A stretch of 64,000 bases of DNA from assembly GCA_042577965.1 (NCBI GenBank), contig JBHPDK010000003.1, forward strand, positions 9,266 to 73,265. The letters are read 5' to 3'. Under the pieces are notes generated by a model, which was not told where the DNA came from, ran no database searches, and saw only the letters and a list, made by a program, of their open reading frames with translations. Each line of letters opens with the position of its first letter. Position 1 is the first letter of the stretch. The position numbers were made by a program, and so were the translations under genes. The stretch comes from Patescibacteria group bacterium (GTDB lineage Bacteria; Patescibacteriota; Gracilibacteria; UBA1369; PNNO01). Shown piece by piece: positions 2,285 to 29,998 of the stretch.

Positions 2285-3260
2285 AAAAAGACATCCTGAA
2301 ACGGAAATTTTATATATTGGTTCCAAGCACGGACCAGAAGCTAAAATGATTCCTGAAATCGGAGTTAAATTTCGTGGAATAATGACAGGAAAGTTGCGAA
2401 GATATTTTTCGTGGCAGAATTTTGTGGATTTTTTCAAAATTCCAATTGGCGTTGTGCAAAGCTATTTTACTTTGCGAAAGTTCAAACCAGCAGCTTTATT
2501 TAGTAAAGGCGGTTATGTTGGGATTCCTGTTATTTATGCAGCGAGCTGGCTTAAAATCCCAATTGTTCTGCATGAATCTGATGTACTTCCTGGGCTTGCA
2601 AATCGCATGGCAGCTAAAAAGGCCTGCGTTATTTGCATGGCTTTTGATGAATGTAAGGTTAATTTTCCTAAAGATGTACGAAAAGTATTAACTGGTAATC
2701 CTGTTCGTGAATTTATTTTAAAAGGCGATCAAGACCAAGGATATAAAATAACAGGATTTAATGGAGGGAAGCCTGTGATTTTAGTTATGGGAGGAAGTCA
2801 GGGAGCAAAACATATAAATGAGGCGATAGTAGAAGCATTACCGCATTTAGATGCTCAGGTTGTCCATATAACCGGTAAAGGTAAAAAAGTGCATGATGAC
2901 ACTGATAAATACAAATCTTATGAATATTTAAATGAGGAACTGCCGGATATTTATGCAATTTCAAGAGTTGTGGTTACAAGAGCAGGAGCAAACAGTCTGG
3001 CTGAAATTGAAGCACTTGGAATTCCAGCAATTCTAATCCCGCTGGCAAAAGCGCAAAGCAGAGGTGAGCAAAGTTTAAATGCCATTTCTTATCAAAAAAT
3101 GCATCCTCAGACAATTATTATTAAAGATGAAGAATTAACTTCTGATAAACTTTTACAAAGCCTGTCACAAACTTTAAACACAGAGCCTAAAAAGCACACC
3201 CCAAATAACGCTGCAGAAAGAATAATTGAGGTTCTTGAAAAATATGTTGACAGAAACTGA
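2208..3260 (+). CDS. murG: UDP-GlcNAc:lipid I N-acetylglucosaminyltransferase MurG
   Basis: N-terminal FTGGGTAGHIVPNIAL, GGSQGA, and TRAGANSLAEIEALGIPAILIP. 350 aa; ends at TGA. Confidence 0.9.
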   Translation: MTHIVFTGGGTAGHIVPNIALIQKLKKRHPETEILYIGSKHGPEAKMIPEIGVKFRGIMTGKLRRYFSWQNFVDFFKIPIGVVQSYFTLRKFKPAALFSKGGYVGIPVIYAASWLKIPIVLHESDVLPGLANRMAAKKACVICMAFDECKVNFPKDVRKVLTGNPVREFILKGDQDQGYKITGFNGGKPVILVMGGSQGAKHINEAIVEALPHLDAQVVHITGKGKKVHDDTDKYKSYEYLNEELPDIYAISRVVVTRAGANSLAEIEALGIPAILIPLAKAQSRGEQSLNAISYQKMHPQTIIIKDEELTSDKLLQSLSQTLNTEPKKHTPNNAAERIIEVLEKYVDRN

Positions 3261-3618: not shown

Positions 3619-4274
3619 TTCCACAGGAAAATCATACAAACCGTCACTTTAAAGGACAGCACAATACTGAAGTTGTGCAGTGCTTTTGCCGAAAGCATTG
3701 GATTATTTTAATTAAAGATTTTTTGGGATTTTTTATTTTTCTCGGCTTTCTTATTTTAACATCACTGTTCCTTAAACCAATTTATAACTTCTTTGTACAA
3801 CAAGATTCTCTAATAATTCACTTAGTGGCTTTTTCAATTGTTGGTCTTTTTACTTTTTATATTCACAGATTCTTTTTAAGATTGATTCGGTACTTTTTGG
3901 AAATTATCATTGTTACTAATTATAGAATTGTTGTTCTTAATAAATCTCTATATTTAAAAGATTCAAAAGATGCAACTGATCTACCAAAAATCCAGGATCT
4001 CAAAAAACATCAAAATGGTATTTTAAGAAACTTTTTAAAATTTGGGGATATTGAAATTACGCTTTCAGCAACATCAACAACTAAATATTTAAAACATATC
4101 CCTAATCCGGATTATCACTTTAGAAAAATAAATTTATTAAAGCGTGAATATATTAAAGAGCGAATTGGATTTAAAAAGCCTAGAAAACAACAGCCAATAC
4201 AACAAGAAAATCTAAGACACCCCTTCCAAAGAGCACCAATTCCTAGTGAAGAAGCAATTTCTGGATTGTCATAG
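3615..4274 (+). CDS. Hypothetical membrane protein with possible bacterial PH-like (YdbT-like) domain
   Basis: 219 aa. Two TM helices followed by a soluble segment (IVVLNKSLYLKDSKDATDLPKIQDL...GDIEITLSA) reminiscent of membrane-flanked bPH domains. Confidence 0.4.
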   Translation: MIPQENHTNRHFKGQHNTEVVQCFCRKHWIILIKDFLGFFIFLGFLILTSLFLKPIYNFFVQQDSLIIHLVAFSIVGLFTFYIHRFFLRLIRYFLEIIIVTNYRIVVLNKSLYLKDSKDATDLPKIQDLKKHQNGILRNFLKFGDIEITLSATSTTKYLKHIPNPDYHFRKINLLKREYIKERIGFKKPRKQQPIQQENLRHPFQRAPIPSEEAISGLS

Positions 4275-4881: not shown

Positions 4882-4975
4882 TGAAGCGAGGCGAAAGCGA
4901 AGCGCCAGCGGAGCTCTTTGGAGCGAGGTCTTTTTGGCCGAGCGAAGCGGAAAAAAGGTTTTTTAAAAAAAAGCC

Positions 4976-5004
4976 TTGACGGTGAGTGCGACCTCACCTA
5001 TAAT
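4976..5004 (+). promoter_or_regulatory. Consensus sigma70-type promoter of lexA: TTGACG-N17-TATAAT
   Basis: TTGACG at 4976-4981, 17-nt spacer, TATAAT at 4999-5004. Sits 31 nt upstream of the lexA ATG at 5035. Confidence 0.7.
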
Positions 5005-5020
5005 GTGAGCGTACACTCAC
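4981..5020. promoter_or_regulatory. Two GTGAG-N6-CTCAC inverted repeats (candidate LexA/SOS operators)
   Basis: GTGAGtgcgacCTCAC at 4982-4997 fills the promoter spacer. GTGAGcgtacaCTCAC at 5005-5020 starts right after the -10. Confidence 0.5.
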
Positions 5021-5034
5021 TATTAATTTTTACT

Positions 5035-5649
5035 ATGGTTGAATTTTTAACTGACAAACAAAAAGCTGTTCTTAAATACATTGAAAAGTATCAGCTTAAA
5101 AATGGTAAATCCCCAACTATCCGCGAAATGCGTGAAAGGTTTAGTGTTAGTTCAGATAACAGTATTCTTAAACATTTAAAAGCTCTTGAAGAAAAGGGCT
5201 ACATCCACAAAGATGACACCCCGCGTGGAATCAAAATGCTTGATGAAGTTAAAAAACGTTTAGAAAGTGCTACTTTAAAGTTACCATTATTAGGTCATGT
5301 GCCAGCAGGTGGCCCTGTATTAACTGAAGAGTTTATTGATGCATGGTACGATGTCGGGCCTGACATTGCAAAACAAGAAAAAGACACATTTATTCTAAAA
5401 GTTAGAGGTGAAAGTATGATTGACGCAGGAATTCATGATGGAGATTTAGTGATTGTGGATAGTGCAAAGCGGGCACGCAATGGTGATGTTGTAGTTGCAC
5501 TTGTTGATAATCAAAACACTGTTAAAACTTTAGTGCGCAAAGAAGGCAAAACATATCTTAAACCAGAAAATCCTCAATTCGAAGATATTTATCCTGAGGG
5601 TGAATTAATTATACAAGGCGTGGTTACTTCATTACTGCGTTTTTACTAG
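5035..5649 (+). CDS. lexA: LexA repressor (S24 peptidase)
   Basis: wHTH ([10 protein letters not shown]...[14 protein letters not shown]), Ala-Gly cleavage site (VPAGGP), and catalytic GESM and VKTL. Start trimmed from the track's TTG at 4918 to ATG 5035, because the promoter lies inside the longer ORF. Confidence 0.9.
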
Positions 5650-19475: not shown

Positions 19476-22400
19476 TTATCCTACAAACCATTTTTTAGCT
19501 CTTCCCCATAAACCTTTTTTCTTTGGCTCTTTTGGTACGTCAGCCATTGCAGGTATTGGTGGTGGCCCAACCTTTGGTGGCCTATCATCTGTCATTGCAA
19601 CGTATTCAGGAGGAACAACTTCAGTATCTTCTCCACGTGGCACATCAATTACTGATGGTTTTGCATCAGCAGGAATTGGTGGAGCTTTAACTCCAAGTAT
19701 AGGTTTGATTTCTTTTGGAAGCGGCGCTGAACCATACATTTGAGGAACAGGCGCCATTTCTTTAACTGATCGAATCTGATCTTTAGAAACAGGAATCGAT
19801 TCAGGATCATCTACTTCATATGATACATAAGGTGGCACGTTGCCGCTTGTACCGCTAGGAACTAAAGCATCTACTGGAATCGGTGGAGGTGTTTGCCGTC
19901 TTTTTCTATCCATATCTGCAAGAACTGGCCTTAACTCATCTAAAGGTTGTGAACCGTAATCTGCTGGTTTTAACATTTGTTCTTTAAATATATCTTTACG
20001 TCTAATTTGATGAACTCTTGCATCTTTTGGAATCCTTGGAGGTTTTTTAGCAAGCATAGCTCCAAGTACTGATTTTAATTCAGGAACCGGAGCAGAACCA
20101 AAGTCTGCTGGTTTTTCAGGAGCAATAGGCTCAGCTGATAAAATATCGCTATCATCAATCTGATGAATTATAGTATCATCAGCATCATCAGGGATTGGTG
20201 GTGGAGCAGCTTGAGGTGCCGGCTCAGGTTGAGTTTCAGCAAACATCACATTAGTTGGTGCATCATCAATCGAACCTGTTTTCTTACCCTTAACCAAATC
20301 TGGCATTGGGAATGATTTTGCTTTCTTCTTTATTGCTAGTGCAAATCTCACATTAGTTTTTAAAGCTCTTCCATCTTCAAGAGTAAAAGGCACTTCTTCA
20401 TGAGACAATATATTGTCAGCACTTCTTTCAAGTCCAGTCAGTCCAGGAAATTCCATCAATTCAACTCCTCTTGCAAACAAATCTTTATATTTTTTGTAAC
20501 TTCTCCCTCTCTTTTTTGATTTCATTACTCTTTCATATTTTGAGAGGAGTCCTCTTGCCTGTCTTGCTCTCCCACGATGACTATCTTGATAATCATTCCA
20601 ATCCTTAAGCTGAGCAGCTTCTTTTTCTGTTAAGCCTTCCTTTGTTAATGCTTTTGCAACAAGTTTTTTCTCTTTTAATTTATTATAAATAAGCCATCCT
20701 TTTTGTAATTTCCCTAATTCTTGCTTGTATGCATATTTGGCTTTATATCTTTGAGCTCTTGGGAGTTTATTTATCATATCTTTAAATGCATTTTGTAAAA
20801 ATTCTGAATAAGAAACTCCATCCAATTTAAATTTTTTACCTTGCCACATTTGCTTATAGATTCCGTCTGGCAAATTATCAATAGTTTTAGTGTCGATTTG
20901 TGCAAATTTTGGATTAGACTGAGCACTTTTTACATTAACTGTCTTTTTAACAGGTTTTGGTGCTGGTGCTGGCTTAACTTTTTTAATCTTTTTTATTGGC
21001 TTTGGTCCTGTTAAATCTTTGTCTGCTTTCATAATTTCTTTTGGAGCTTTCATAACAACAACTTTCATAGCCGGCTTCATTGCCGGTTTCATTGCAGGCT
21101 TCATGCTTGTTTTCATTGGTGCCTTCATTCCTGGCTCTTTTTTATCTTTTGGAAGATCCTTAATTATCTTTTTTGAAGAATTATCAGTTGTGGATTTTGC
21201 TGCAATTTTATCTTTTCCCTTTTTTGAATCCACTTTTTTGGATCCTTTTGGAAACAAAGCAATGCCTAATACTACTACTATTGCAACAACGACACCCCAA
21301 ACAACTACTTTTACAGTTGTAGTAGTTTTTGGATGCTCTTTTTCCAATTCTTGTATTTTTTCTTTGATTATTGCTTTTTCTGGTGCTCCTAAATCATCAA
21401 TTGTAGGTGAAGGTGGGATAGTTGTATCTTTAACTCTTACTGTTTCTACATCTGCTGCTGCAGGCACTGGTGCTGGTTCGGTTGCTGGTTTAGGTGCTGG
21501 TTCAGGTGCTTTTAGTGCAACACCCTTTACTGGTGGAATAACATTTGTACGCCCTGGTTTAGGCTCTATATCTGATGCTTTCAAAGCCATACCTTTTATA
21601 GGTGGAATAACATCAGTGGTTTCATCTGCAGCTGGTTTTGGATCAGACTTTTTTGGCTGAGGTTCTACCAGTTTATCAGGTATCGGCGCATCCGGATCAG
21701 TTATTTCGTGTGGTCGTTCAGAATATCCAGTTGGGGAAATAGGTCCGGTTTTTTTTAATTTTGGTGGATCAGGAATATGTTTAGAATCTACCAAGGTCAC
21801 TTCTCCACTGCCTTCATCATCAGCTGGTTTTGGCTTAGGTTTTGGTTTAAGCTTTTCTAGTGTTACAGGTATACTAAAATGATCAACTTGTGTTATCTCC
21901 TCTTCACCGTCAGCAAAATCAGAATCTCCATCTTCCTGAAGAGGCTGTGTTACTTTTGCAGGCTCAGGAATTGCATGACCACCGATACTCCATTTAGATC
22001 TTGGGATTGGCAATGGAGTGTAGTCTTCTTCGAAGTCTGTTGATACATGAGCAGCAGCACTTTCACTTTCAGCACCATCAGCAGCTTCTGGTGATTCAGC
22101 TGCTTCAGCAGGTTCAGGACTTGGTTGGCTTAAAACCGCACCCATTCCTTGTCTTGTTACTTGTCTTACTCTTTTGGGTTTTTTCTTTATAGAAAGTGAA
22201 GTCATAAAATTTGCTTTTTGCTGCGTAAATTCAGTATCCAGAACTTCATTCATAATATTTCTAACCTCAGTTCCAGCAAATTCAATTTTAAGTCTCCTTA
22301 AAAAAAAGCAAAAAATATTCATTGAAGTTCCCTCACTAAGATGATTGAAAATCTCTTGATGCAAACCATCATTATCAGCAACAGATTCAAGTAATATGGT

Positions 22401-22925
22401 TCTTTGCCTAATCTCTTTTTCAGTTAAATCATCAACTGGTGTTTTTAAAATTCTTTCCCATTTTTTAAATAATTCTGATATAAATGGTGATAATTTTTCT
22501 CTTATATGATCTGAGTATAATTCTTCTTCTGCCATCATCATTTTTATTCCTGACCTAATAGCTAATAAAACAAAGTCTAAAAAAATTCTTGCGGTTTCAT
22601 CATCGCCATAAATTGAATCATTAATAAATTGCTCTAAATCAGTCTCAGTTTGCACCCACTCAGGAAACAAATAATCTCTTGCTTTTGAATCTTCAAATAA
22701 TTTTTTTATTACATTTTTAACAAATGGAGGCAGTCCATTTTTTTTAATTTCTGCATGTGAAAGCTTTTTGTCTAATAAAGCTTTTTCATGACCTAATGCA
22801 AGTAAATCAATTGGATCAATTAATTCAACTGTCTGTATTCTCATCTCTTCGTATTCAGAATCTCTATGCTCATAAGAATCCCATTCAATACCTGTATTTG
22901 TGCCTGTAAGTTTTTCTGGAGCCAT
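19476..22925 (-). CDS. Large hypothetical protein (1149 aa): helical N-terminal domain, Pro/Glu-rich linker, single TM, Lys-rich MKPA repeats, C-terminal proline-rich repeat modules
   Basis: Long uninterrupted ORF. TM segment VVVWGVVVAIVVVLGIALF. MKPAMKPAMKPAM run. Three modules [DM][FY]GSxP[LV]xE[LI][KR]x[VI]L...PP(P)IPxDA. No family recognised. Confidence 0.7.
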   Translation of the reverse strand: MAPEKLTGTNTGIEWDSYEHRDSEYEEMRIQTVELIDPIDLLALGHEKALLDKKLSHAEIKKNGLPPFVKNVIKKLFEDSKARDYLFPEWVQTETDLEQFINDSIYGDDETARIFLDFVLLAIRSGIKMMMAEEELYSDHIREKLSPFISELFKKWERILKTPVDDLTEKEIRQRTILLESVADNDGLHQEIFNHLSEGTSMNIFCFFLRRLKIEFAGTEVRNIMNEVLDTEFTQQKANFMTSLSIKKKPKRVRQVTRQGMGAVLSQPSPEPAEAAESPEAADGAESESAAAHVSTDFEEDYTPLPIPRSKWSIGGHAIPEPAKVTQPLQEDGDSDFADGEEEITQVDHFSIPVTLEKLKPKPKPKPADDEGSGEVTLVDSKHIPDPPKLKKTGPISPTGYSERPHEITDPDAPIPDKLVEPQPKKSDPKPAADETTDVIPPIKGMALKASDIEPKPGRTNVIPPVKGVALKAPEPAPKPATEPAPVPAAADVETVRVKDTTIPPSPTIDDLGAPEKAIIKEKIQELEKEHPKTTTTVKVVVWGVVVAIVVVLGIALFPKGSKKVDSKKGKDKIAAKSTTDNSSKKIIKDLPKDKKEPGMKAPMKTSMKPAMKPAMKPAMKVVVMKAPKEIMKADKDLTGPKPIKKIKKVKPAPAPKPVKKTVNVKSAQSNPKFAQIDTKTIDNLPDGIYKQMWQGKKFKLDGVSYSEFLQNAFKDMINKLPRAQRYKAKYAYKQELGKLQKGWLIYNKLKEKKLVAKALTKEGLTEKEAAQLKDWNDYQDSHRGRARQARGLLSKYERVMKSKKRGRSYKKYKDLFARGVELMEFPGLTGLERSADNILSHEEVPFTLEDGRALKTNVRFALAIKKKAKSFPMPDLVKGKKTGSIDDAPTNVMFAETQPEPAPQAAPPPIPDDADDTIIHQIDDSDILSAEPIAPEKPADFGSAPVPELKSVLGAMLAKKPPRIPKDARVHQIRRKDIFKEQMLKPADYGSQPLDELRPVLADMDRKRRQTPPPIPVDALVPSGTSGNVPPYVSYEVDDPESIPVSKDQIRSVKEMAPVPQMYGSAPLPKEIKPILGVKAPPIPADAKPSVIDVPRGEDTEVVPPEYVAMTDDRPPKVGPPPIPAMADVPKEPKKKGLWGRAKKWFVG

Positions 22926-22993: not shown

Positions 22994-24154
22994 TTACACA
23001 AAATCAAAAACCCATCCAACTGCCAAACCTGCTTTTGATGAATTATCTGCAGAAGTTACTTTATGCCAATTTAATTCCCTGTCACCATAATCATCAGGAT
23101 TAGTATAAGAAACCTCAATAAAAGTTAGATCGTTTTCTTTGCCCAGTGCTAACCTAACAACCTGACTTCCTATCTCTCTAGCCTCCTGTTCATTTCTGGC
23201 AATTGAAGTACGCATAGCTTTATCAAATATTTGTACAGCACCGAGTGGTTGTAATTTATTTTGAGTTAAACCATTTTTTTCTAATGCTTCATTTAGGGCC
23301 TTAAGTGCTTCCATTTGCTCCTTTCCGCTTAAACCTGGGAATAAACCTTTATCAAATGTGATATATATTTCAGGTTGCATTGTATCAAGACTTCTTCTTT
23401 CAGTTTGTGAAGGCATCCATTTTTTTATCCATTTTTCCCACGTGGTCTCCTCAACTTCTTCATCTTGACCTTCCCCAGCAAGCATAAATTTTCTTACTCT
23501 TTGCAAATCAGGATATTTAAGTCTATCAAGTTCATCATGCTGAAGTCCCTGAAATCCAATATGTACCCCTAGATAAGAACAAAGTGCATGAACAAAGAAA
23601 TCCGGCTCATTATCTTCAATTTCTTTCCAGATTTCCGGATCAATAACTCCTAAATGAGCTACTTCTTCAAAAGCTTTTTTAAAATTAGCTGCAAACTGTT
23701 TATTTTTAAGTAAGGTATTCAGATATTTAGCTGCATCCAATCCAACTTCATAAATATATTTCATAAACCTTTTTACTAATCTAGAAGGTACGTCTCCTTT
23801 ACAAAGGTGTGCATACCATTCCAGATTTTTCCCAAGTCTAAATACATCTTCACCAAATACAGCCTGAAGCTCCTGAACATCCTCATTTAAAATTGCATCA
23901 GCATGAGCTTCTCTATTTTCAAATGCCAATAAATTCATTTGTCCTGGTTTTTTTGCTTCAAGAATAGAAATTAATTTTTCACGAACAAGTTGTTTAAATT
24001 TATTAGGAGTATCTTCATCAAAATACTCTTCAGGAATTGCAGGTACTTCTTTTGGCTTTCTAACATATTCAATTTCCTGTTCATTTATAATTCTATGAGC
24101 AAGAAGTTTAGCTTGTCGACTTTCAGATATACCCGTTCCAAATGTTTCAGGCAT
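22994..24154 (-). CDS. Hypothetical protein (386 aa), no recognisable domain
   Basis: Uninterrupted ORF with an ATG start. Own promoter-like sites on the minus strand: TTGACA-N18-TAAATT at 24187-24216 and TGcTATAAT at 24235-24243. Confidence 0.6.
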   Translation of the reverse strand: MPETFGTGISESRQAKLLAHRIINEQEIEYVRKPKEVPAIPEEYFDEDTPNKFKQLVREKLISILEAKKPGQMNLLAFENREAHADAILNEDVQELQAVFGEDVFRLGKNLEWYAHLCKGDVPSRLVKRFMKYIYEVGLDAAKYLNTLLKNKQFAANFKKAFEEVAHLGVIDPEIWKEIEDNEPDFFVHALCSYLGVHIGFQGLQHDELDRLKYPDLQRVRKFMLAGEGQDEEVEETTWEKWIKKWMPSQTERRSLDTMQPEIYITFDKGLFPGLSGKEQMEALKALNEALEKNGLTQNKLQPLGAVQIFDKAMRTSIARNEQEAREIGSQVVRLALGKENDLTFIEVSYTNPDDYGDRELNWHKVTSADNSSKAGLAVGWVFDFV

Positions 24155-24257
24155 ATTATTTGGATTATTAATAGGAAAGGTTTAAAAATTTATCATTTTT
24201 ATTGGACATTTGTCAATAAATTGACTGTTTGCAGATTATAGCAACTGAAGGACATTG

Positions 24258-24556
24258 GAAAAGCGGGCCGCGGTAGGAATGTTGTGCGGCCCGGGGATTG
24301 GTTGATTGGTGGTACACTCGGGGAATCGAATCAGTCGCGATCCGTGACTTGGCCTAGTGCTCTAGCGTGCTTCTTGCGTGCTAGTGCGCCAGGCTGCTCC
24401 TGCGGATTGTGGCCATCTTGGGCTGCTTCTGGGTTCGGGGGCTCGTTCTCACATCCATTGGTAGATACCTCCTACCATGTAAAGGGCGCCCCATTTCTGG
24501 GGCCAGACAGGGTTGATCCCGAGAGGGTTTCTTTGTTCCCCCCGGAAAAACAACTA
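24258..24556 (-). ncRNA. Candidate ~300-nt G+C-rich structured RNA, class unresolved
   Basis: 36 of 60 bases are G/C in 24361-24420, against AT-rich flanks. Multiple hairpins: 24362-24384, 24460-24476, 24485-24504. Long-range CTCGGG/CCCGAG pairing between 24317-24322 and 24528-24533. Minus-strand promoter TTGTTC-N16-TATTAA at 24563-24590. Terminator-like 8-bp GC stem at 24264-24293 followed by UUUU. Strand is uncertain (see findings). Confidence 0.5.
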
Positions 24557-24728
24557 TTACTCTTAATAATCCTTTTCCCAAAGGGAACAAATATATATCC
24601 AATCTTCCAAAGATCAGTAGAAATACACCATTCGAATAGAAAGCGTATAACATTTTATGACCACAAATATTGTATAGAAAAAGTTGGATTTGTCAAAATC
24701 TGGTGTACCACAGTAGGCGACGTTAGAA

Positions 24729-25799
24729 CTAAGCTTCTCCCCCATGATAAATACGTAAAGATTTCTTTGCAGCAACACGTACTTTAGCAGAAGGATCATT
24801 TTTTACTAAGGACTGCAACATATCAAAAGGCATTTTGTGGCTACCAGCTGCAACTTCCCTAACTTCAGCGTATGCATCCATTCCAAGTTGAACTATAGTA
24901 GTTTTTAATACATTTTTGTGCTTAGCTACAGCTTTTTTCATACTATTTATTTTGCTTTTTATTTCTGTAGGACGGAACCAATTATCTTTATTTGAAGTAA
25001 AATCTTTTACAATAAGTCTACTAATATAATCTAATGTTTTCCCTAATGTATTTGGATGTTTAGCTATTTTCAATATATCACTAATAAAGGTGTTTTTATG
25101 ATTTGCCAAATCATTAAGAATATCAGATGGAGTATTTGCAAATTCGCTAGTAAAGTATGAATGTAAGTAAATACCTACGTATTTTTTTTTATACAAGTAT
25201 CTTATAGTAGATACCCATGTTTTTCTGCTTTTAATTACATCACCTAAAATGACTAATTTTTTGCTTTTTTTTGCTATAATATCTTTTGCTTTCCCGCAAA
25301 TATGAGAGAGTTTAGCAAGTAGGTGAGCTTGACAACCTATACGTGCATAAGCTATTTGAGTTTTTTTAGAGGTATGCTTATTTTGTATAACAACAATTTG
25401 TACCATCCGATTCTTATCATTTGCTACTCTGTCTATAAGATTTGAATCTTTCGTATTCTTTACAGCTAAAGCTCTTAATACATACATTCTACTTCCTGCT
25501 AAAATTTTAAGATTCTTTTCATCTTTTAAATTTATATATCTTCCTAAAAATTTTATTACACTAGATAAATCATTTTCTTTAACAGCTCCTATTGGAGAAC
25601 TTAATTGTTTAATTTTCTTTTCAACTAACGCAAGCTTTTGTTTATTTAATGTACCAAGTTTTTTTGGTGAAAAAACTATGCCATTGGGCACAAAAAACCA
25701 TTTAGGTTTATCATAAATAAACCTTCCATAATGTAAAAAACATCGATTGTACAAATTATAAAAATGATTTTTTATTTCGGTTTTTGTTAACAAACACAC
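24729..25799 (-). CDS. Hypothetical protein with C-terminal HEAT/PBS-lyase-like repeats
   Basis: 356 aa. C-terminal DAYAEVREVAAGS...DPSAKVRVAAKKSL resembles HEAT-like repeats. Non-ATG (GTG) start in the track. Confidence 0.5.
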   Translation of the reverse strand: MCLLTKTEIKNHFYNLYNRCFLHYGRFIYDKPKWFFVPNGIVFSPKKLGTLNKQKLALVEKKIKQLSSPIGAVKENDLSSVIKFLGRYINLKDEKNLKILAGSRMYVLRALAVKNTKDSNLIDRVANDKNRMVQIVVIQNKHTSKKTQIAYARIGCQAHLLAKLSHICGKAKDIIAKKSKKLVILGDVIKSRKTWVSTIRYLYKKKYVGIYLHSYFTSEFANTPSDILNDLANHKNTFISDILKIAKHPNTLGKTLDYISRLIVKDFTSNKDNWFRPTEIKSKINSMKKAVAKHKNVLKTTIVQLGMDAYAEVREVAAGSHKMPFDMLQSLVKNDPSAKVRVAAKKSLRIYHGGEA

Positions 25800-25833
25800 T
25801 TAATTATATCATCTTTTGCGGACTTCGTCAATA

Positions 25834-25908
25834 TGGTGTCCCCAGCAGGAATCGAACCTGCATCTAGAGCTTAGGAGGCCCTCGTTCTATCCATTGAACT
25901 ATGGGGAC
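25834..25908 (-). tRNA. tRNA-Arg (anticodon CCT)
   Basis: Hand-folded cloverleaf: GTCCCCA acceptor, D arm GTTC/GAAC, anticodon loop CT-CCT-AA, T arm GCAGG-TTCGATT-CCTGC, encoded CCA. Confidence 0.95.
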
Positions 25909-25936
25909 TCGCAAAATTTCGTAAAAATCCTCAAAC

Positions 25937-26563
25937 TTATACTGCTTTTAGAACTACAAAATCAGTGCGGTCTTCAGGCAACGCACTTTTATCGGCAACT
26001 TCATAAGAATCCTGAACTTCGTGTTCAGTAACTCCCATTTCTTTTAATAGAGGTTCAAGTTCAGCATCGTCTTTATAATACATTGGAATTACAACCCGCG
26101 GATCAATTTCTTCAACTGCCTGATGTAATTGTTTTACTGTATATGCTTTTTTTCTTGCAGCTGGAACCATCAAAATATCAACATTTCCAATCTTTCCTAA
26201 GATTTCTTCATCAAGTTCCTGTCCAAGTTCGCCTAAATGACAAATCCTCACATCATCAACAAGTAAACTAAATATTACAATTCTTCCTTTATCAGTATCG
26301 CCTTCTTCTTTATCTTTTGTGTAAGCTGGGATTGCTACAATTGCAGCTCCTTTAACTTCGTATTCTCCAGGCCAGTTTATAACATCTAAATCCTCTGCTC
26401 CTTTTAATAATTTAGCTTTTTCGTGGTAGTCGTCAGTTAATAAAACTGTGTCAGCTTTTAATTCTTTTAATTTATGCTTACCGTCTTCTATAGGATCAAC
26501 AACAACAGTTGTTTTCTTGCCTTTAATAGTGAATGTGCTTTCGCCATGCCAGGTAATTTCCAT
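25937..26563 (-). CDS. MBL-fold metal-dependent hydrolase (UPF0173/COG2220-like)
   Basis: MEITWHGESTFTIKGKKTTVVVDP N-terminus typical of the family; 208 aa. Confidence 0.65.
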   Translation of the reverse strand: MEITWHGESTFTIKGKKTTVVVDPIEDGKHKLKELKADTVLLTDDYHEKAKLLKGAEDLDVINWPGEYEVKGAAIVAIPAYTKDKEEGDTDKGRIVIFSLLVDDVRICHLGELGQELDEEILGKIGNVDILMVPAARKKAYTVKQLHQAVEEIDPRVVIPMYYKDDAELEPLLKEMGVTEHEVQDSYEVADKSALPEDRTDFVVLKAV

Positions 26564-26648
26564 AATGTGTCAGTTAAAATGCACGCAAATTGTACTCGAA
26601 AATTTACTAAAACGCAAAAGCCTTTAAGTTTCCTTGAAGTTTAGCTGA

Positions 26649-27974
<1,326 letters not shown>

Positions 27975-28850
27975 ATGGGCCCAGGATCAATCACAACTTT
28001 ACGTAAACAACATATAAAAAAGGCTTTCCCTGCACGTGGCACTGATTCTCATAAAGGCCAAAACGGAAAAGTTTTAATAGTTGGTGGAAGCATTGAATAT
28101 TATGGCGCGCCTTTGCTTAGTGCTCTTGGCGCTTTATATAGCGGTGCTGACTTGGTTTATGTTTATGTGCCGGAATCGAATTTTGATGTTACCCGCAGTT
28201 TGTATCCTGATTTTATTGTGCGGAAATTTCCTGGCCAGTATTTAACTCATCAGGGGGTTGCTGAAATTCTGGAAATGTCTAAAAAATGCGACAGTGTTTT
28301 AATAGGGCCAGGCATGTACGATCGCGAAGTAACTGTTCGCGCTATTTTAGAATTAATCGAAGCACTTGAAGTGCCAACTGTATTGGATTCAACTGCAATT
28401 GAAGTTTTGAAACTGGTAAAAGAAGTGCCATTGAGCCAACCAATTGTGGTGTGCCCTCATAAAAACGAATTCGAAAATTTAACAATGCGTGACATTAAAG
28501 ATAAAAAGGATATTGAAGATTTAATAAAATTTGTTCGTACAATTGCAACTGAAATGCAGATAAATATTTTACTTAAAAGCCCAACTGATGTAGTGGCTTC
28601 GCCAAAAGGAGATGTGGCTTTAAATAAAACCGGTAATGCAGGTTTAACTGTAGGTGGAAGTGGCGATGTTTTAGCAGGTTTGATTGCGTCTTTGATTGCA
28701 CAGGGCGCTGCGCCTTATGAAGCATGTAAGCTTGCAGCTTACTTACTTGGCTTTACAGGTGATTATTTATATAAACAAAAAGATTACTGCTTTAGCGCGA
28801 CTGATTTAGCTTTGGAATTACCTTTTACTATTAGGCAGATAATGCAATAA
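27975..28850 (+). CDS. nnrD: ADP-dependent NAD(P)H-hydrate dehydratase (YjeF C-terminal family)
   Basis: HKGQNGKVLIVGGS...YYGAPLLSALGALYSGADLV and GGSGDVLAG motifs. Confidence 0.85.
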   Translation: MGPGSITTLRKQHIKKAFPARGTDSHKGQNGKVLIVGGSIEYYGAPLLSALGALYSGADLVYVYVPESNFDVTRSLYPDFIVRKFPGQYLTHQGVAEILEMSKKCDSVLIGPGMYDREVTVRAILELIEALEVPTVLDSTAIEVLKLVKEVPLSQPIVVCPHKNEFENLTMRDIKDKKDIEDLIKFVRTIATEMQINILLKSPTDVVASPKGDVALNKTGNAGLTVGGSGDVLAGLIASLIAQGAAPYEACKLAAYLLGFTGDYLYKQKDYCFSATDLALELPFTIRQIMQ

Positions 28851-28987
28851 AAAAGGCCCTGGTTTTTCGTCCAGGGCTCAGAGGGGCTATTGCCCCCATT
28901 CATTCGTCCACCTCATTGTGGGCCTCCGAGTCAAAATGGTTAAAACCAGTTTTGCTTGGTATGGCACCTCCTATGTTGAGTTGACAG
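28846..28987 (-). ncRNA. Mini transcription unit A (candidate sRNA or micro-ORF RNA, ~140 nt)
   Basis: Minus-strand TTGACA (29017-29022)-N17-AATAAT (28994-28999). Contains AGGAGGTGCC. Intrinsic terminator: GCCCTGG/CCAGGGC stem at 28856-28877 followed by U6. Confidence 0.5.
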
Positions 28988-29036
28988 AATGTTATTATTT
29001 CATATTTTGTTAATTTTGTCAAGTATAATATTTCAT

Positions 29037-29223
29037 AAAAAAAGGACCCCACATGATTTAGGTGGGGTCCAAGCCATCGACCGCTTCTTAAACCTGGTCA
29101 TGGTTTACCTCCTCGGGAGGAGTTTGAGGTTGAGGTTTCTAATCAGTTCAGTCGGCACCTCCTGTGCGATGTGGCACGAAAGCCATCACTGTTGCGTCGA
29201 ACCGCGACAGGATGACAAAAACA
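29037..29223 (-). ncRNA. Mini transcription unit B (candidate sRNA or micro-ORF RNA, ~185 nt)
   Basis: Minus-strand TTGACA (29252-29257)-N16-TATAAT (29230-29235). Contains AGGAGGTGCC. Intrinsic terminator: 9-bp GGACCCCAC/GTGGGGTCC stem at 29044-29070 followed by U7. Confidence 0.55.
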
Positions 29224-29250
29224 TAATTCATTATACTTAATTTTAGGATT

Positions 29251-29279
29251 TTGTCAAGTATATTTTTATGTTATATTAT
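29251..29279 (+). promoter_or_regulatory. Promoter TTGTCA-N17-TATTAT for pgeF; its -35 overlaps the minus-strand -35 of unit B
   Basis: TTGTCA 29251-29256; TATTAT 29274-29279. The ATG at 29285 is only 5 nt after the -10, which implies a leaderless or near-leaderless mRNA. Confidence 0.5.
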
Positions 29280-29284
29280 GAAGC

Positions 29285-29998
29285 ATGAAAACTGAAATTA
29301 TTAAACAAATTTTTACTCGGGAAGGAGGCGCAAGCCATCCCCCTTATGACTCTTTAAATGTACGTTTTGGCATTGGTGATAACGAAGATGATGTTCTTGA
29401 AAATCGGCGTCGGATTTGTGAAGAGCTTAGGATTGAAATGGGACAACTTGTTAGTTTGAATCAAGTCCATAGTGATCGACTTTTGTATGTTGATGAATTG
29501 GTTCAGGGTGAAATTGATGGATATGACGCTATGATCACTGATGTTAATGAGATTTTCCTTATGATTCAGGTTGCGGATTGTCAGGCAGTTATGATTTGGG
29601 ACCCTAAAGCTGAGGTTGTTGCAAATGTTCATAATGGATGGAAAGGTTCAGTACAAAATATTGTTGGAAAAACTGTACATAAAATGATTGAGGATTTTGG
29701 ATGTGAGCCAAAAAATATCAAAGTTGAGGTTTCGCCTTCACTTGGGCCGTGTCATGCTGAGTTTAGTGATCCATATAATGAACTGCCTAAAGAACTACAT
29801 GAGTTTATTGATGAAAATAATCATGTGGATTTTTGGAAAACCACAGAAAAACAATGTATGGATGAAGGAATTAAGCGAAAAAATATAAAAATCGCGCAAA
29901 TTTGTACTGTTTGCAATAAAAATAAATATTTTTCGCATAGAGCTGATATAAATAAACAAGGCACAGGAAGATTTGCATCTGTAATCGGAATGAGATAG
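29285..29998 (+). CDS. pgeF: Peptidoglycan editing factor / purine nucleoside phosphorylase YfiH (DUF152, LACC1 family)
   Basis: NQVHSD, ADCQAV, HNGWKGS, GPCHAEF. Confidence 0.8.
   Translation: MKTEIIKQIFTREGGASHPPYDSLNVRFGIGDNEDDVLENRRRICEELRIEMGQLVSLNQVHSDRLLYVDELVQGEIDGYDAMITDVNEIFLMIQVADCQAVMIWDPKAEVVANVHNGWKGSVQNIVGKTVHKMIEDFGCEPKNIKVEVSPSLGPCHAEFSDPYNELPKELHEFIDENNHVDFWKTTEKQCMDEGIKRKNIKIAQICTVCNKNKYFSHRADINKQGTGRFASVIGMR

Follow-up and report, generated by a model that had tools for sequence, protein, structure and literature searches.

A candidate noncoding RNA carried by a small cassette at the 3' end of tRNA-Arg(CCT) in a Peribacteria-like bacterium

Introduction

What is a 300-nt block of G+C-rich DNA doing between two hypothetical genes of an AT-rich bacterial chromosome? 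The question is raised by positions 24258-24556 of a 64-kb window, our term for the whole stretch of 64,000 nucleotides analyzed here (contig JBHPDK010000003.1 of the Patescibacteria group bacterium assembly GCA_042577965.1). The G+C content of this island is 57.5% versus 35.9% across the window, of which it is the longest and strongest G+C island; its three tRNAs and two small units at 28845-29290, each bounded by a promoter and a terminator, account for the remaining noncoding G+C islands. A sequence-only reading had described the island as an orphan structured element with its own promoter and terminator, and its count of 36 G/C among the 60 positions 24361-24420 is reproduced by our recount. 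The reading that we favor, at a probability of about 0.5, is that the island belongs to a mobile cassette without an open reading frame (ORF), which encodes a minus-strand noncoding RNA (ncRNA) of about 350-400 nt and whose tRNA-like tail is a recombination boundary. If this is true, an RNA gene has been moved as its own tiny cassette in the candidate phyla radiation (CPR), a group in which ncRNAs and mobile elements are almost unexplored. For the RNA the evidence comes from a single sequence, and for the cassette repeat from two loci.

The window is ordinary chromosome, encoding MutS, MutL, AlaRS, enolase, DnaJ and S-adenosylmethionine (SAM) synthetase, and the nearest enolases and metallo-beta-lactamase (MBL)-fold proteins come from metagenome-assembled genomes of Candidatus Peribacteria and Peregrinibacteria. 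As had been described, the island lies between two hypothetical genes, which encode 386 aa (22994-24154) and 356 aa (24729-25799) and both lack a Pfam match. At NCBI they are tagged ACFLZH_01400 (386 aa) and ACFLZH_01405, which are consecutive if the tags advance in steps of five, and this suggests that no feature is annotated between them.

Results and Discussion

The island lies in a lineage-specific insertion

The gene for tRNA-Arg(CCT) (25834-25908, minus strand; ARAGORN and Rfam), with its CCA encoded, adjoins an MBL-fold gene in all relatives. The syntenic loci compared, which contain the tRNA-Arg, the MBL-fold gene and enolase, comprise 10 anchored on enolase (L001-L014, L044-L047) and eight from Peribacteria and Peregrinibacteria genomes in GTDB. 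Segments 24164-24249 and 25834-26566 of the window align next to each other in relatives, with a gap of 5 nt in L001, 34 nt in L007 and 84 nt in L002. Since the flanks are contiguous in these three, positions 24250-25833 are extra in the window, starting from the CCA end of the tRNA. This insertion of about 1.58 kb, read on the minus strand, contains two cassettes, the 356-aa gene and the RNA unit, and is also missing in L004/L005, L023-L026, L044 and L045 (at least eight Peribacteria relatives overall). Other cargo is found at the same spot in relatives, namely a 434-aa homolog of the 386-aa gene, a 90-aa gene (in L044 an ordinary AT-rich gene) or nothing. Judged from these loci, the 3' flank of tRNA-Arg(CCT) is a variable insertion hot spot.

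It is an established pattern that partial tRNAs flank successive integrations at a tRNA gene, with older elements pushed outward (bioRxiv 10.1101/2020.12.28.424599). We propose that, in this Peribacteria-like lineage, an ORF-less cassette of about 390 bp (24700-24307) with the island as its cargo would have been inserted at the 3' end of tRNA-Arg(CCT), and that the neighboring cassette with its HEAT-like orphan gene would have been inserted at the same end.

Two further observations concern this spot. A G+C island downstream of the tRNA in L027 was considered as an RNA and rejected, being the coding strand of a 252-aa ORF. Several close relatives (L009-L014; in L012 and L014 at positions 1-25) have contigs that end in or beside tRNA-Arg(CCT), next to the MBL-fold gene, which is consistent with strain heterogeneity or with repeats at this insertion hot spot.

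A 30-nt repeat marks the cassette boundary

The boundary between the two cassettes is formed by a 30-nt repeat, AGTTCTAACGTCGCCTACTGTGGTACACCA (24701-24730, minus strand), which begins at the stop codon of the 356-aa ORF and occurs once in the window. This ORF (24729-25799, minus strand; NCBI MFC1810134.1, 354 aa from TTG 25793) is an orphan that is weakly HEAT/LRV-repeat-like and has a promoter of its own, TTGACG-17-TATAAT at 25831-25803. Its protein has a sole true homolog, P0122, with 56% identity and in a singleton cluster among 1.84 billion representatives, and no homolog in IMG/VR. The P0122 gene lies on a 4.5-kb JGI contig (L015; JGI 3300040953). At both loci the stop codon of the gene is directly followed by AGTTCTAACGTCG(C/T)CTACTGTGGTACACCA, 29 of 30 positions being identical next to proteins that share only 56% of their residues, and then by a TTGAC promoter.

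On L015 the repeat is present in three identical direct copies (905-934, 3074-3103 and 4202-4231), each followed by a TTGAC-N17/18-TATAAT promoter, and copies 1 and 2 have a further stretch of about 40 nt upstream in common. The copies delimit units of one to three genes: a TrmB-like regulator with two ORFs, the 356-aa homolog, and a further ORF. No integrase is found on this 4.5-kb contig. When its upstream bases are included, the 30-nt repeat of the window can be aligned with the 3' half of tRNA-Arg(CCT) at p = 0.004 (shuffling test), and a repeat of probable tRNA origin that bounds cassettes in two unrelated contigs hints at gene capture at tRNA-Arg(CCT). The repeat regions fold no better than shuffled sequences as either RNA or DNA (z between +0.8 and -0.9). 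An exact scan for the repeat in GTDB genomes and JGI contigs found nothing, and its 16-mer core gave only chance matches in IMG/VR.

Signals for an independent minus-strand transcript

Directly after the repeat stands a candidate sigma-70-type promoter, TTGACA-16-TACAAT (24696-24669, minus strand), which matches the consensus at 11 of 12 positions. Just eight sites in the 64 kb reach at least 11/12 on either strand, and these include the promoters of the RNA unit, of the 356-aa cassette and of each small RNA-like unit at 28845-29290, four in all. We infer that transcription of the RNA unit starts near 24662. The sequence-only reading had placed the promoter at TTGTTC-N16-TATTAA (24590-24563); these letters are present, but the site fails the scan, lies inside a 27-bp hairpin and is far inferior to TTGACA-16-TACAAT. 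From the better promoter, which lies about 105 nt upstream of that site, a transcript of about 400 nt is predicted that is AU-rich in its 5' part, where an AU-rich leader (24612-24662, minus strand) is predicted to form a small hairpin domain (pair probabilities 0.86-0.97, from a single sequence).

At the other end, a G+C hairpin, CGGGCCGC-N14-GCGGCCCG, followed by CUUUU (24260-24293, minus strand; pair probability 0.99) resembles a weak intrinsic terminator. The stem CGGGCCGC/GCGGCCCG, which had been read as a terminator at 24264-24293, is thus present with a probability of 0.99, but only four U follow it and the T-run threshold of the scan is not reached. The hairpin partly resembles the sequence directly after the tRNA in L007, where AATC..CGGGCCG is matched, so the transcript may run into an old tRNA trailer; the hairpin itself may be the ancestral trailer or terminator of tRNA-Arg. 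We therefore picture a transcript that would end at the G+C hairpin and its UUUU, possibly in this old trailer. Taken together, the strong promoter and the hairpin with its four U bracket an independent minus-strand unit, as had been claimed, and these flanking signals plausibly put the RNA unit on the minus strand, where it would be transcribed from its own near-consensus sigma-70 promoter.

With its order of promoter, structured RNA, terminator and gene, the same arrangement could be read as that of a leader or attenuator acting in cis on the 386-aa gene downstream, given that the element has the orientation of that gene and that its hairpin and UUUU lie about 105 nt upstream of the ATG. However, the separate promoter postulated for this gene was found by our scan: TTGACA-18-TAAATT (24216-24187, minus strand) falls in sequence that is also conserved in relatives without the insertion, including those that have the 434-aa homolog but not the element, and no riboswitch, T-box or leader family was matched. 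Hence a leader is highly improbable. The 386-aa gene itself is orphan-like in a word-indexed protein search, while tblastn relates it at 30-32% identity to the syntenic 434-aa gene (L001 7763-9067, L002 7609-8913).

A strand-specific hairpin and a weakly supported core

Of the predicted fold, the most convincing part is a 27-bp hairpin with an AAGA loop, H1 (24532-24591, minus strand), made of 21 Watson-Crick and six G-U pairs and one mismatch. Relative to shuffled sequences its fold has a z of -7.6 for the minus and -4.7 for the plus strand. Six of its seven non-Watson-Crick positions are G-U on the minus strand only, for which we calculate a chance of about 1e-4, assuming that about one in six such positions is compatible with G-U on a given strand. 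As DNA, H1 (inverted repeat I1) is only 75% complementary. This G-U pattern is the best single piece of evidence for a minus-strand RNA, in which H1 would be a likely site of double-strand-specific processing. The whole unit (24662-24255) reaches z = -4.2 on the minus strand, with none of 100 shuffles folding as well, and this is mostly due to H1.

The island's G+C-rich core of 207 nt (24317-24523, minus strand; 58.9% G+C) is closed by a helix of CUCGGG (24523-24518) and CCCGAG (24322-24317). The enclosing helix had been noticed before and does exist, but the partner noted as CCCGAG, which is the 5' strand on the RNA, lies at 24518-24523 and not at 24528-24533, ten bases off. Within the core, the minimum-energy fold has hairpins at 24503-24488, 24477-24459 (with AGGAGGU), 24394-24352 and 24344-24327; the local hairpins of the sequence-only reading are all in it, at 24362-24384, 24459-24477 and 24488-24503, with pair probabilities of 0.85-1.0. 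A further closing helix, GAUUGG/CCAAUC, is predicted between leader and tail (P, the pair probability, 0.87). The resulting architecture, which is a single-sequence prediction, consists of the leader hairpin, the GAUUGG/CCAAUC helix, H1, the CUCGGG/CCCGAG helix and four internal hairpins; we accordingly envisage the RNA as an AU-rich leader, a 27-bp G-U-rich hairpin and a 207-nt G+C-rich core that would be closed by the 6-bp helix. Shuffles of equal composition give the G+C core alone a z between -1.5 and -2.6. The description of the element as structured is therefore convincing for H1 but not for the core. The case also illustrates where the G+C-island heuristic falls short, since a genuine island here owes its thermodynamic support to the flanking AT-rich hairpin rather than to the G+C core.

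These folds also bear on the idea that the island acts as DNA, in the manner of a folded single-strand recombination site or replication origin such as an integron attC or a plasmid single-strand origin (sso). Its location at a cassette boundary would suit such a site, as would the strong strand asymmetry, the plus strand being G+T-rich, and the hexamer TAGCGT at 24363-24368, which we take to be the CS-6 consensus of ssoA origins. However, a 6-mer match of this kind has a chance probability of about 0.15, the DNA folding scores are only z = -2.5 and -1.8, and H1 depends on G-U pairs, with 75% complementarity as DNA. In addition, the protein cassettes of L015 and the 356-aa cassette have the 30-nt repeat without any such G+C segment, so cassettes do not generally require one. 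We consider a DNA-level site very unlikely.

Coding potential and the question of a small protein

The ORF that runs across the island (24284-24787) had been dismissed as a G+C artefact; it is present, and its codon score is negative where those of real genes are positive. The codon log-odds of both ORFs across the island are -0.15 and -0.16, as against +0.24 to +0.45 for real genes. The island has no 3-base periodicity, so that it is not a fragment of a G+C-rich gene, and its ORFs had no match in Pfam or protein-database searches.

A more specific alternative is that the transcript is a structured mRNA for a small protein, either toxin-like or a regulatory peptide, comparable to type I toxin mRNAs with their 5'-3' fold-back. 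Candidates are a 90-aa ORF (24653-24381) that begins 9 nt past the predicted transcription start and a 25-aa ORF from AUG 24458. The latter is preceded, inside the hairpin 24477-24459, by AGGAGGU and an 8-nt spacer, and the GAUUGG/CCAAUC helix would provide the 5'-3' closure. Moreover, one of the nearby small RNA-like units has a GGAGG-led ORF of 8-9 codons that is kept in a relative, including a synonymous change. Yet the 90-aa ORF has a codon score of -0.15 and no 3-base periodicity, the peptides have no Pfam match, and they are basic and of low complexity rather than hydrophobic as in classical type I toxins. Initiation from a Shine-Dalgarno (SD) sequence is also not the norm here: GGAG, GAGG or AGGA within 25 nt upstream of the start is found for just 4 of 47 ORFs in the window, and the organism is essentially without SD-led genes. 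The likeness to hok-type mRNAs, which extends to an RNA of about 400 nt with a predicted 5'-3' closing helix and an SD half-buried in a hairpin before a small ORF, is architectural only; the encoded peptide is basic, unlike a membrane toxin, no gene for an antisense RNA was identified, and no family matched. A small-protein mRNA is thus quite unlikely, and the island is probably noncoding, a G+C-rich RNA gene of a class outside all described families.

AGGAGGT occurs eight times in the 64 kb, four of these in the island and the two units at 28845-29290. In a genome that does not rely on SD sequences, the exposed AGGAGGU hairpin is one candidate interaction site of the RNA, for which our best guess is a role as an accessory or regulatory RNA of the mobile cassette, acting in trans.

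The tRNA-like tail and known RNA families

The tail that first drew attention to a tRNA-like 3' end, GATTCGATTCCCCGAGTGTACCACCA, is indeed found at 24332-24307 on the minus strand, as GAUUCGAUUCCCCGAGUGUACCACCA at the distal edge of the cassette, and both ARAGORN and inspection agree with the earlier failure to build a T stem or an acceptor stem for it. As the tail sits exactly at the distal edge of the insertion and has neither stem, we prefer an attachment (att) site or cassette boundary over an end like that of transfer-messenger RNA (tmRNA): most simply, the tail ...UUCGAUUCC...ACCACCA is a cassette or att boundary and not a working acceptor end. It would then be a partial-tRNA or att-like scar rather than an end that can be aminoacylated. 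In comparisons of the repeat, the tail and tRNA-Arg, the shared core is GTGGTAC(C)ACCA. The tail further holds GTGTACCAC, the exact reverse complement of GTGGTACAC in the 30-nt repeat (inverted repeat I4), and each of these is one base off the palindrome GTGGTACCAC. This perfect 9-nt inverted repeat, GTGGTACAC/GTGTACCAC at 24309-24317 and 24703-24711, brackets the RNA cassette, and in a transcript reading through from the 356-aa gene its arms could pair and so loop out the unit as a whole.

With Rfam 15 at gathering thresholds, only tRNAs were found in the whole window and nothing on the island; at E<=10 over 24150-24700, just junk miRNA and snoRNA matches to the AT-rich hairpin appeared. ARAGORN reported no tmRNA or credible tRNA at the island with thresholds relaxed to 60% (ps60), with or without introns. 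These are the covariance-model and ARAGORN checks that the sequence-only reading had proposed, and they bear out its statement that the class cannot be recognized by eye, as the lack of any Rfam 15 family does for its failure to see RNase P, signal recognition particle (SRP) and cobalamin motifs.

Could the element nevertheless be a very divergent housekeeping RNA (tmRNA, RNase P RNA, SRP RNA or 6S RNA) that current models miss? Its size would suit such an RNA, as would its G+C richness, the T-loop-like UUCGAUU in its tail and the ACCACCA at the tail's end. With tmRNA in particular, the island shares a unit length of about 300-400 nt, G+C richness in an AT-rich genome, the UUCGAUU and the ACCA at its tail end. 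However, no tmRNA covariance model matched at E<=10, ARAGORN in tmRNA mode (-m) was negative down to ps60, and the element is absent from the syntenic site in at least eight relatives. The sole complement of GUGUACC that could close an acceptor stem is GGUGUAU at 24629-24623, which would need three G-U pairs, would put U3-A70 in the place of G3-U70 and is paired elsewhere in the minimum-energy fold. A T arm fails because ACUGA before UUCGAUU is unable to pair with the following CCCCG, and from this loop to the CCA end there are 17 nt, not the 16 of a tRNA. The minus-strand frames end ...SSLAH*, ...QEAR* and ...TDRD*, none of them tag-like. RNase P RNA, SRP RNA and 6S RNA were rejected likewise, with cmscan empty on both strands at gathering thresholds and at E<=10. 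Thus, unlike tmRNA, the island unit has no acceptor stem, T arm, tag frame or match by covariance model or ARAGORN and is not conserved in relatives; absence from the syntenic site in relatives, inside a lineage-specific insertion, fits an essential core gene poorly, and a housekeeping RNA retains hardly any probability.

Two other candidates were tried and rejected. A T-box leader was suggested by GGUGGUAC on the plus strand (24308-24315), which is at the 5' end of the element with no plus-strand gene downstream, and RF00230 was unmatched. For a group I intron in a tRNA gene, intron-permitting ARAGORN was empty at default and gave plus-strand noise only at ps80, and RF00028 was unmatched. When the group I P/Q/R/S elements, SRP helix 8 and the T-box sequence were compared by hand, only isolated short matches emerged, and these were dropped after the Rfam result.

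Functional RNA or decaying remnant

The searches for homologs of the RNA found none in the collections covered. Neither distant-mode blastn against phage and plasmid collections nor blastn and nhmmer against the 47 loci compared matched the RNA element; the comparison with CPR relatives proposed in the sequence-only reading thus ends with no homolog among the loci compared. A set of 5.8 billion proteins, queried with the open +0 frame to catch spurious ORFs over homologs, had none, and when JGI metagenome contigs and IMG/VR were scanned with six degenerate patterns made from this +0 pseudo-protein, there were pattern matches only, none of them confirmed. A 22-mer of the tail was unmatched in IMG/VR.

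Several observations weigh against a functional RNA in a mobile cassette. No RNA homolog was found in the collections covered, so neither conservation nor covariation supports it. The core (24317-24533) reaches only z = -1.8 on the minus strand and -2.55 on the plus strand, on which it folds slightly better, and the stems within it disagree on the strand; this conflict among G-U pairs, which had been noted before, is real in the folds of both strands. Rich in C and A and poor in U (13.5%), the minus-strand core has an unusual composition for an RNA with a compact fold. Just four U follow the terminator stem, which does not pass the scan, the inverted match of 9 nt is close to chance expectation for 500 nt, and the tail is similar to the 30-nt repeat with p = 0.55 and to tRNA-Arg with p = 0.12, neither significant alone. 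Finally, Pfam shows no integrase, transposase or reverse transcriptase in the 37 longer ORFs of the window.

Some of the same facts can be read as the marks of a nonfunctional remnant, that is, decaying foreign or recombination-site DNA such as an old attP arm or a fragment of a lost element, with fortuitous transcription if any. Such a remnant would be a singleton without a relative in any search, its core would not be significantly more stable than shuffles, it would lie at a variable hot spot where relatives have unrelated cargo, and its tail would look like a degraded tRNA 3' end, here 1 nt too long. However, 300 nt at 57% G+C should decay towards 36% unless recent or selected, and no 3-base periodicity marks the island as a fragment of a G+C-rich gene. 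One of the eight best promoters of the window precedes it, and the mismatches of H1 are almost all G-U on the transcribed strand, pointing to selection at the level of RNA. We therefore regard a remnant as unlikely and keep the cassette-borne ncRNA as our preferred reading.

Comparison with other mobile systems

In several respects the locus is like integrative elements that target the 3' end of tRNA genes and leave repeats of partial tRNAs, such as tycheposons and genomic islands. The insertion starts at the CCA end of tRNA-Arg(CCT) at a site that is empty in relatives, it consists of tandem units, its repeat resembles a tRNA 3' half, a T-loop...CCA-like fragment lies at the distal end, and the cargo of the hot spot varies. 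Unlike in those elements, a Pfam scan of the insertion and of the window's 37 longer ORFs shows no recombinase domain, and the units are tiny (about 0.4 and 1.1 kb), with repeats that are only loosely tRNA-like and a tail without significant similarity to tRNA-Arg.

A second comparison is with integron cassette arrays, to which L015, with its small units of one to three genes in one orientation and a conserved repeat between them, bears a likeness; the RNA unit would correspond to an ORF-less cassette. In contrast to the imperfect palindrome of attC, however, the repeat here is an identical 30-nt direct repeat without a significant hairpin. Each unit also has its own promoter, no IntI or attI is seen on the 4.5 kb of L015, and two loci are known. 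The bolder claim, that the RNA, carried as an ORF-less cassette, would be the first member of a new structured-RNA class and would belong to a hitherto undescribed, integron-like Peribacteria capture system, in which small cassettes with promoters of their own, bounded by tRNA-Arg-derived 30-nt repeats, accumulate at the 3' end of tRNA-Arg(CCT), is in our view rather improbable. We regard the RNA element as outside described families and its setting as a variant of tRNA-targeted integration with tiny, integrase-less, promoter-bearing cassettes.

ROOL, GOLLD and HEARO are large G+C-rich orphan ncRNAs of mobile elements and prophages, often near tRNA genes, with lengths of 300-800 nt and strong covariation. 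The island was likewise noticed as a G+C-rich intergenic block, is associated with a mobile element beside a tRNA, and does not reveal its function in its sequence. In contrast, those RNAs are in Rfam, and none of them matches the island RNA, which is a singleton with a weakly supported core.

Other RNA-like units and features of the window

Two tandem G+C-rich small-RNA-like units fill a 435-nt gap at 28845-29290 (minus strand), between the genes for an NAD(P)HX dehydratase and a Cu-oxidase_4-like protein, which abut in L001, L002 and L004. Their promoters lie at 29257-29230 (12/12) and 29022-28994 (11/12), each unit has a strong intrinsic terminator, and both carry AGGAGGUGCC; there is no Rfam match (best E 0.096). 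On the minus strands, the promoter-distal unit (28845-29035) is 72% identical to its homolog at L010 3060-3270, in which promoter and terminator are kept along with the UAGGAGGUGCCAU motif. A tiny GGAGG-led ORF is kept as well, reading MRWTNEWGQ* in the window and MKWINEWG* in L010, with one synonymous change. To judge from this comparison, the unit may be a micro-peptide or leader-peptide RNA.

Beyond the 386-aa gene, a gene for 1149 aa (19476-22925) has a C-terminal half that is conserved (50-72% identity) and a Pro-rich, fast-evolving N-terminal half. At 4918-5649, a gene for a LexA-like repressor has an 11/12 promoter at 4976-5004, just inside the start of the listed ORF, so that the real start codon is probably downstream of the listed TTG.

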